64,000 bases of DNA from Escherichia coli (GTDB lineage Bacteria > Pseudomonadota > Gammaproteobacteria > Enterobacterales > Enterobacteriaceae): the NCBI RefSeq assembly GCF_030013205.1, contig NZ_CP122648.1; one strand, 5' to 3'. Each line of letters begins with the position of its first letter. Position 1 is the stretch's first letter. The notes under the pieces were generated by a model. That model was not told the origin of the DNA. It made no database searches and was given only the letters and a program-made list of their open reading frames with translations. Positions 16,252 through 16,588 of this stretch are shown here, one piece after another. The translations under genes and the position numbers were made by a program.

Positions 16252-16312
16252 TCCGGGTGCGTGTTGTGTTTGTTTTTATGCAAGTTGCCGGAGGCGACCT
16301 CCGGCACTGTTT

Positions 16313-16588
16313 TTATTTTTTATCTTCCGGCGTATAGCCCTCGATATGCACCTCTTTACCCTCGAACAGGAAGTTGACCATCTCCTGCTCCAGCAGCTTG
16401 CGGTGCTCGGCATTCATCATGTTGAGTTTCTTTTCATTAATCAGCATGGTTTGTTTGTGCTGCCACTGCGTCCAGGCTTCTTTGGAGATCTCGTTATAGA
16501 TGCGTTTTCCCAGTTCGCCGGGGTACAGCTGAAAATCCTGACCTTCTGCTTCACGTTGCAGGAAAGTACAAAAAATCGTTCTGCTCAT
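16313..16588 (-). CDS. yggX: Fe(II)-trafficking protein YggX
   Basis: 91-aa [35 protein letters not shown]. Confidence 0.9.

Follow-up and report, generated by a model that had tools for sequence, protein, structure and literature searches.

A hairpin in the yggX-mltC spacer of Escherichia coli with terminator features on one strand and a mapped mRNA 3' end on the other

Background

Stable stem-loops that lack a U-tract have been described at steady-state RNA 3' ends, where they protect transcripts from PNPase and RNase II and are followed by sequence richer in C than in G (Dar & Sorek 2018, PMC6061677). A strong structure in the spacer between two cistrons can also decide which of them survives: in the RyhB-induced decay of iscRSUA, the iscR-iscS spacer structure preserves iscR, as far as the work of Desnoyers et al. 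2009 is related in PMC12533949. Small RNA control is likewise known for the spacer studied here, since Miyakoshi 2021 verified that GcvB represses mltC with its R1 seed via the yggX-mltC spacer (RIL-seq chimeras 877, 33 and 1323), described mltC expression as 'very low' and found by western blot that the upstream part of an intraoperonic fusion was unaffected by GcvB.

The product of yggX, the cistron preceding mltC, protects against oxidative damage. In this study we examined the hairpin that lies between the two genes in a 64-kb stretch of E. coli DNA (hereafter the window). The original prediction, made from the sequence, had proposed that this hairpin either stops antisense read-through or acts as a processing or stability element within the operon. 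We assess both proposals against published RNA 3'-end maps of K-12, the orthologous spacers of related enterobacteria and the predicted pairing of GcvB with the mltC leader, and compare the locus with the systems that it most resembles.

Results

A stem-loop between co-directional genes

The open reading frame calls and the annotation agree on the operon order mutY-yggX-mltC-nupG, with all four genes on the minus strand, as had been called at the outset. In K-12 coordinates the operon lies on the + strand, with yggX at 3104093-3104368 and the start of mltC at 3104433. A 2.65-kb segment around the hairpin, annotated with mltC, yggX and mutY, is present in 5425 of 5426 complete E. coli genomes. 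The coordinates of the features in the window are collected in Table 1.

Table 1. Positions of the features discussed, in window coordinates
Feature	Position	Strand	Basis and remarks
GC-rich stem-loop, 9 bp, 3-nt loop	16286-16306	minus (sense)	sequence, folds, consensus scan
T-rich run	16308-16321	+	complement of yggX Lys-Lys codons (16316-21), TAA stop (16313-15) and spacer AAACA (16308-12)
Equivalent of published sense 3' end K-12 3104399(+)	16282	minus	...CCUCCGGCAACUU-3'; Adams 2021, TRS 2023
Equivalent of minor 3' terminus K-12 3104426/3104428(+)	16253-16255	minus	TRS tables; 3' edge of predicted GcvB duplex
CA-rich mltC leader, GcvB R1-seed site	16253-16284	minus	Miyakoshi 2021; duplex calculation; conservation; includes mltC ribosome-binding region
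yggX CDS	16313-16588	minus	upstream cistron; mRNA 3' end probably set by hairpin
mltC CDS	15169-16248/51	minus	downstream cistron, poorly expressed, GcvB-repressed
Canonical bidirectional speC/nupG terminator	13664-13704	both	AAGAAAAAAACGGGTCACCTTCTGGCGACCCGTTTTTCTTT: A7, 10-bp GC hairpin, T5CTTT; -24.5/-27.9 kcal/mol

Read on the + strand, the hairpin is formed by the arms GCCGGAGG (16287-16294) and CCTCCGGC (16298-16305) around the loop cga (16295-16297), with T16286:A16306 as the ninth pair of a stem in which seven of the nine pairs are G-C. As sense-strand RNA it reads UGCCGGAGG-UCG-CCUCCGGCA and starts 6 nt past the yggX stop codon; its equivalent in K-12 occupies 3104375-3104395. The fold is stable in either direction, at -18.2 kcal/mol for + strand RNA (z -3.3, with one of 200 shuffles equally good) and -17.5 kcal/mol for minus strand RNA (z -3.7, none of 200). 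The window contains 13 perfect stems that are GC-rich, 9 bp or longer and closed by loops of 3-8 nt, vs 0.57 +/- 0.96 in its shuffles, and a covariance-model scan with Rfam returned no family match at the hairpin site at E <= 1.

On the + strand the hairpin is followed by CTGTTTTTATTTTTT (+ strand tail ac-TGTTTTTATTTTTT, 16308-21), so that both features of an intrinsic terminator are present there, the GC-rich stem-loop and a U-tract (CUGUUUUUAUUUUUU) right after the stem; if the stem is extended via CAAGT/ACTG, U5AU6 abuts it directly. A consensus scan for terminator-like sites over 6 kb ranked the hairpin first, on the + strand only, and sequence, folds and scan together place hairpin and T-run exactly where they had been predicted. 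The T-run is the complement of the sense-strand end of yggX, which reads ...GAT AAA AAA TAA AAACAG, and about two thirds of the + strand 'U-tract' consists of yggX coding sequence and stop codon. The sense strand, said in the original prediction to have no U-tract after the hairpin, indeed continues with the tail AACUUGCAUAAAAAC, and the U-tract of an intrinsic terminator is thus missing in that direction; the Escherichia sense tail AACUUGCAU holds only 3 U in 9.

The hairpin exists in more than one allele. That of K-12, TGCCGGAG-CACGC-CTCCGGCA, has a stem of 7-8 bp, a 5-nt loop and a folding energy of -14.6 kcal/mol, and the window allele (sense GAGGTCGCCTC, 16294-16297) has GT on the sense strand where the K-12 allele (GAGCACGCCTC) has CA, two neighbouring substitutions that give the stem one more G-C pair and make it about 3 kcal/mol more stable. 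Counted as exact 69-mers among the 5426 complete genomes, the window allele occurs 51 times and the K-12 allele 4498 times; the published 3'-end data described below concern the K-12 allele, the window carrying the rarer and more stable one.

A hairpin slot behind yggX in enterobacteria

The yggX locus was compared in 81 sequences, namely 80 species-representative genomes (Enterobacteriaceae and two Erwiniaceae) and the window. A stable hairpin (RNAfold dG <= -5) starting 0-20 nt past the yggX stop was found in 76 of them, at a distance of 0-8 nt in most, and five species have no hairpin in this slot, from which it follows that the hairpin is dispensable. The half of the spacer distal to the promoter, CAAACACAACACGCACTCCCGGAATG, is nearly invariant, and the first 20-100 nt past the stop are variable.

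The slot is filled in several ways. Klebsiella, Kluyvera, Raoultella and others carry a family of the form GGGCC-N3-5-GGCCC followed by T2-7, which starts 0 nt from the yggX stop; Mixta, Pantoea, Pseudescherichia and Atlantibacter have full terminator-like hairpins; REP/BIME elements occupy the slot in Citrobacter, Salmonella, Enterobacter, Leclercia and Lelliottia; some Enterobacter have a GCGGGG...CCCCGC hairpin, Kosakonia long hairpins, and Escherichia the GCCGGAG...CTCCGGC hairpin. As read directly from per-species folds, the stems are unrelated and changed at both pair partners (GGGCC/GGCCC, GAGTC/GACTC, GGGTCC/GGACCC, GCCCC/GGGGC, GCGGGG/CCCCGC, REP/BIME), which looks like the mark of selection for a structure at this one position. 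RNAalifold returned no structure on a MAFFT alignment of the 31 short-spacer species, whose loops vary in length and so throw the pairs out of register, and a comparison of sense with antisense minimum free energies and G.U-wobble counts in 75 species gave no asymmetry between the strands (p = 0.83).

Most of these hairpins abut or nearly abut the yggX stop, so that a terminating ribosome must unwind the 5' arm, and such a stop-proximal placement suggests translation-coupled behaviour, which may take the form of anti-attenuation or of ribosome stalling. Ribosome stalling has reportedly been seen at stop-proximal REPs.

At the orthologous site C. amalonaticus has a REP-like element and S. diarizonae a two-REP BIME, the outer arms of which align with the arms and flanks of the E. 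coli hairpin, GTTGCCGGA...TCCGGCAAC; by this likeness the Escherichia hairpin is probably a shortened REP-type palindrome. A full REP element was ruled out: the hairpin is a perfect palindrome of 21 nt vs an imperfect one of about 35 nt, and has neither the consensus GCCGGATG...CATCCGGC nor the tail.

A hairpin of this descent might be neutral, left over from a REP insertion and under no selection for a role, any 3' end at it being merely the physical effect of a stable hairpin in an mRNA. The alignment with REP/BIME elements that sister genera carry at this position fits such an account, as do the frequent landing of REPs in spacers, the five species that do without any hairpin, and the E. 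coli alleles, which vary in loop and stem top under no obvious constraint. What speaks against it is that some hairpin, non-REP ones included, sits in a 20-nt slot in all but five of the 81 sequences, with stems changed on both sides of their pairs and held tight against the stop codon in most species. We therefore consider a purely neutral origin improbable.

RNA 3' ends on the sense strand

The original prediction would have been refuted by a lack of RNA 3' ends at the hairpin on both strands; on the sense strand, ends do map there. In the Term-seq data of Adams 2021 (eLife, MG1655) the primary end assigned to yggX is 3104399(+), with 2757, 1958 and 965 reads in LB at OD 0.4, LB at OD 2.0 and M63, respectively. 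TRS (Nat Commun 2023) arrives at the identical nucleotide from both RNAtag-seq and Term-seq, labels it 'Alternative primary in TU - yggX' and prints the same hairpin fold in its table, where the K-12 allele has -14.6 kcal/mol. A sense 3' end just after the stem is hence present in vivo in two independent studies and five condition/method combinations; it lies 4 nt past the stem and 34 nt ahead of the mltC ATG.

The scores attached to this end in Adams 2021 are 0.95 for Rho ('No') and 1.27 for intrinsic termination, with a cutoff of 3.0, and ends that are neither Rho-dependent nor intrinsic are ascribed, as a class, to RNA processing in that study. Over 800-nt intervals, coverage is 212 before the end and 129 past it, about 61% remaining, so the site is leaky. 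Further downstream, Adams 2021 reports a region of Rho termination inside mltC, at K-12 3105029 (about 15652 in the window), with a score of 2.1; it is some 630 nt from the hairpin, and a connection between this region and the 3104399 end is one that we infer, the Rho score at the site itself being neutral.

A reproducible sense 3' end at +4 that is scored neither Rho-dependent nor intrinsic supports the second proposal, that of an element for RNA processing or stability inside the operon. We judge it slightly better than an even chance that the hairpin is an operon-internal stem-loop of the sense strand that forms and protects the stable 3' end of a mutY-yggX or yggX mRNA and so uncouples yggX from mltC.

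Weak intrinsic termination would yield the same 3' end as a protective hairpin, and the main competing account is that of a weak, leaky sense-strand terminator, i.e. an attenuator at which RNA polymerase stops despite the poor U-tract, perhaps aided by NusA/NusG, lowering transcription of mltC-nupG relative to mutY-yggX. An end 4-5 nt past the stem fits intrinsic termination followed by trimming, and the coverage loss of about 40% across the site is of the expected kind. In about 30 other species, moreover, the slot hairpin is followed by T2-7, in nine species T makes up at least 5 of 8 nt, and the full U-tracts of the two Erwiniaceae (Mixta and Pantoea) suggest an ancestral sense terminator or attenuator. 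Against these points stand the intrinsic score, well short of its cutoff, the U-poor Escherichia tail and the REP-type hairpins of Citrobacter, Salmonella and Enterobacter, which have no U-tract whatever; furthermore, with the hairpin 6 nt past the stop, a ribosome finishing yggX in coupled transcription-translation would presumably melt its 5' arm. On balance we regard an attenuator as rather unlikely, and retain the protective sense-strand stem-loop as the preferred reading.

In favour of an attenuator, Gifford and Wallace (1999) reportedly placed apparent attenuators in two spacers of the operon, yggX-mltC and mltC-nupG. The latter spacer holds a second U-less hairpin (15130-15157, minus strand), CCCCTGACGATGCTCAGGGG followed by CAAAAATG, which is built like the yggX hairpin and probably represents the operon's second 'attenuator'; a published sense 3' terminus, K-12 3105551, lies 8 nt past it.

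The filter applied to file 3 of Adams 2021 implies a transcription start site 20-200 nt upstream of the 3104399 end, that is, within yggX (about 16302-16482 in the window). Were transcription to start inside yggX, a short RNA terminating at the hairpin would be possible; a relaxed sigma-70 scan (at least 8/12) gave no promoter match inside yggX that might account for the implied start.

The plus strand

If the hairpin were an intrinsic terminator, additional or primary, for + strand RNA crossing mltC, it would shield yggX-mutY from antisense transcription. By its sequence the + strand element has all the marks of a strong intrinsic terminator and should terminate well if transcription reached it, but no 3' end near the corresponding site (K-12 3104363-67, window 16314-16318) was called on the opposite strand in Adams 2021 (three conditions) or in TRS 2023, five condition/method combinations in all, a result that may just reflect the lack of an antisense transcript. 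From 3101638 to 3121587 the TRS 2023 table holds no opposite-strand end, although such ends, or antisense ones, appear elsewhere in both studies.

Neither was a transcript found that could feed such a terminator. The only + strand gene upstream is speC, convergent with nupG and closed by a bidirectional terminator 2.6 kb before the hairpin (one that our simple consensus scan missed), and it is because read-through from speC is blocked there that no source of antisense transcription was found. The published 3' end of nupG, K-12 3107016, falls in the same terminator. Untranslated antisense RNA is normally removed by Rho well before travelling 2.6 kb. Between 13666 and 16290, sigma-70-like sites on the + strand scoring at least 8/12 number 6 vs 7.9 +/- 3.3 in shuffles, at or below chance, and none reaches 9/12.

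Adams 2021 also lists, in LB at OD 2.0, a strong 3' end at K-12 3103021(-), equivalent to about 17660 on the + strand of the window, antisense to the first codons of mutY and upstream of trmB. Some + strand RNA therefore exists 1.35 kb beyond the hairpin.

Conservation might still favour a + strand terminator, since at least 5 A in the 8 nt before the hairpin, the would-be antisense U-tract, occur in 44 of the 76 hairpin-bearing sequences. Within the yggX tail (the last four codons, 16316-16327, and their orthologues), A-ending synonymous K/E/Q codons make up 80% (171:44) vs 47% in the gene body (944:1054), and the stop is TAA in 78 of 81. This bias is marginal under a tree-matched per-column control, however (p = 0.047), with six body columns equally A-biased, and 31 species keep the hairpin without the A-rich 5' flank, those with REP-type and Enterobacter-type hairpins among them. 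Judged by these sequences, the antisense U-tract is not conserved, and the A-tract appears mostly explained by the E/K/Q-rich yggX tail and its TAA stop. The same tail also reads (ARN)4-5, a possible Hfq distal-face motif.

The proposal that the hairpin stops antisense read-through is accordingly unsupported: two K-12 maps hold no antisense 3' end, no source of a + strand transcript was found, and the U-tract is missing in about 40% of the species that keep the hairpin. We consider an antisense role very doubtful; the terminator look of the + strand arises, for the most part, as a side effect of the A-rich yggX end.

The GcvB site in the mltC leader

The mltC leader follows directly on the stem-loop and is nearly invariant across Enterobacteriaceae, with an 11-nt perfect GcvB core, CAAACACAACA. 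The duplex predicted with the R1 region of GcvB, the only region used in the computation, extends from 16284 to 16253 (-36 to -5 from the mltC ATG) at -28.5 kcal/mol, a value equalled by 9 of 1000 shuffled leaders. It begins 2 nt past the stem, and its 3' edge, K-12 3104428, coincides with the minor TRS terminus 3104426/28.

Discussion

The sense-strand stem-loop that we favour could set the end of yggX mRNA in the following way. Some transcripts would pass the hairpin into mltC-nupG, and those entering the poorly translated mltC would be ended by Rho, or cut in the single-stranded CA-rich leader bound by GcvB/Hfq. Exonucleases would then chew back in the 3'->5' direction until stalled at the hairpin. 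Two roadblocks may be envisaged, a transient one formed by the GcvB-Hfq duplex, which would leave the minor end, and a definitive one formed by the hairpin, which would leave the major end at +4. The outcome would be a stable yggX (or mutY-yggX) mRNA insulated from the fate of mltC. Of this scheme, we infer the exonuclease trimming and the protective or insulating role, as well as the REP origin of the hairpin.

A more ambitious reading, which we put forward only tentatively, would make the hairpin a selected insulator: GcvB, Hfq and Rho polarity would silence mltC, and yggX mRNA, trimmed to the stem, would be kept stable. Its function would have been kept across Enterobacteriaceae by replacement of the structure, from terminator-like hairpins to REP/BIME elements to a miniaturised REP in Escherichia, and it might in addition be a latent antisense terminator. 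If so, yggX-mltC would join iscRSUA as the second well-defined case of discoordinate control in which a spacer structure allows an sRNA to act on one cistron and leave its neighbour alone, and would also show an ancestral attenuator replaced through REP capture.

Published tables for E. coli K-12 already contain the 3' end, the fold and the neighbouring GcvB site, and the feature is an ordinary one. It has little import beyond the locus, where it offers a clean case of a hairpin which, lying by an A-rich gene end, mimics a terminator on the wrong strand, and illustrates how U-less stem-loops inside operons set differential mRNA ends.

Comparison with known systems

The speC/nupG terminator of the same window is the canonical form of which the yggX hairpin is reminiscent, sharing an A-tract, a GC hairpin and a T-tract on one side, and the + strand version of the yggX hairpin fits the consensus. 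Unlike that terminator, the yggX hairpin lies between co-directional genes and has its U-tract on one strand only, the one without a known transcript, whereas the mapped 3' ends belong to the strand without a U-tract.

With REP/BIME elements the hairpin shares the GCCGGA...TCCGGC arms and flanks, the intercistronic position and the lack of a U-tract; in contrast to them it has neither the internal consensus nor the GCCTAC tail, and the window holds no second copy. By its sequence it would be at most a REP remnant, not a member of the REP family.

The iscR-iscS spacer, as related in PMC12533949, offers a parallel in arrangement, with a stem-loop just upstream of an sRNA site in the next leader, a downstream gene that is repressed and an upstream one that is spared. 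It differs in that the sparing of yggX is known at the level of a protein fusion, the role of the hairpin and GcvB-triggered cleavage being putative at this locus.

The stem-loops of Dar & Sorek (PMC6061677) are matched in having a stable GC stem without a U-tract, a precise 3' end a few nucleotides on and C-rich, G-poor sequence downstream; Rho termination is documented further on, inside mltC, with a neutral Rho score (0.95) at the site itself. Unlike that class, which was reported without an association with upstream A-tracts, the yggX hairpin is preceded by an A-rich tract and sits inside an operon instead of at the end of one; its dependence on PNPase or RNase II is putative.
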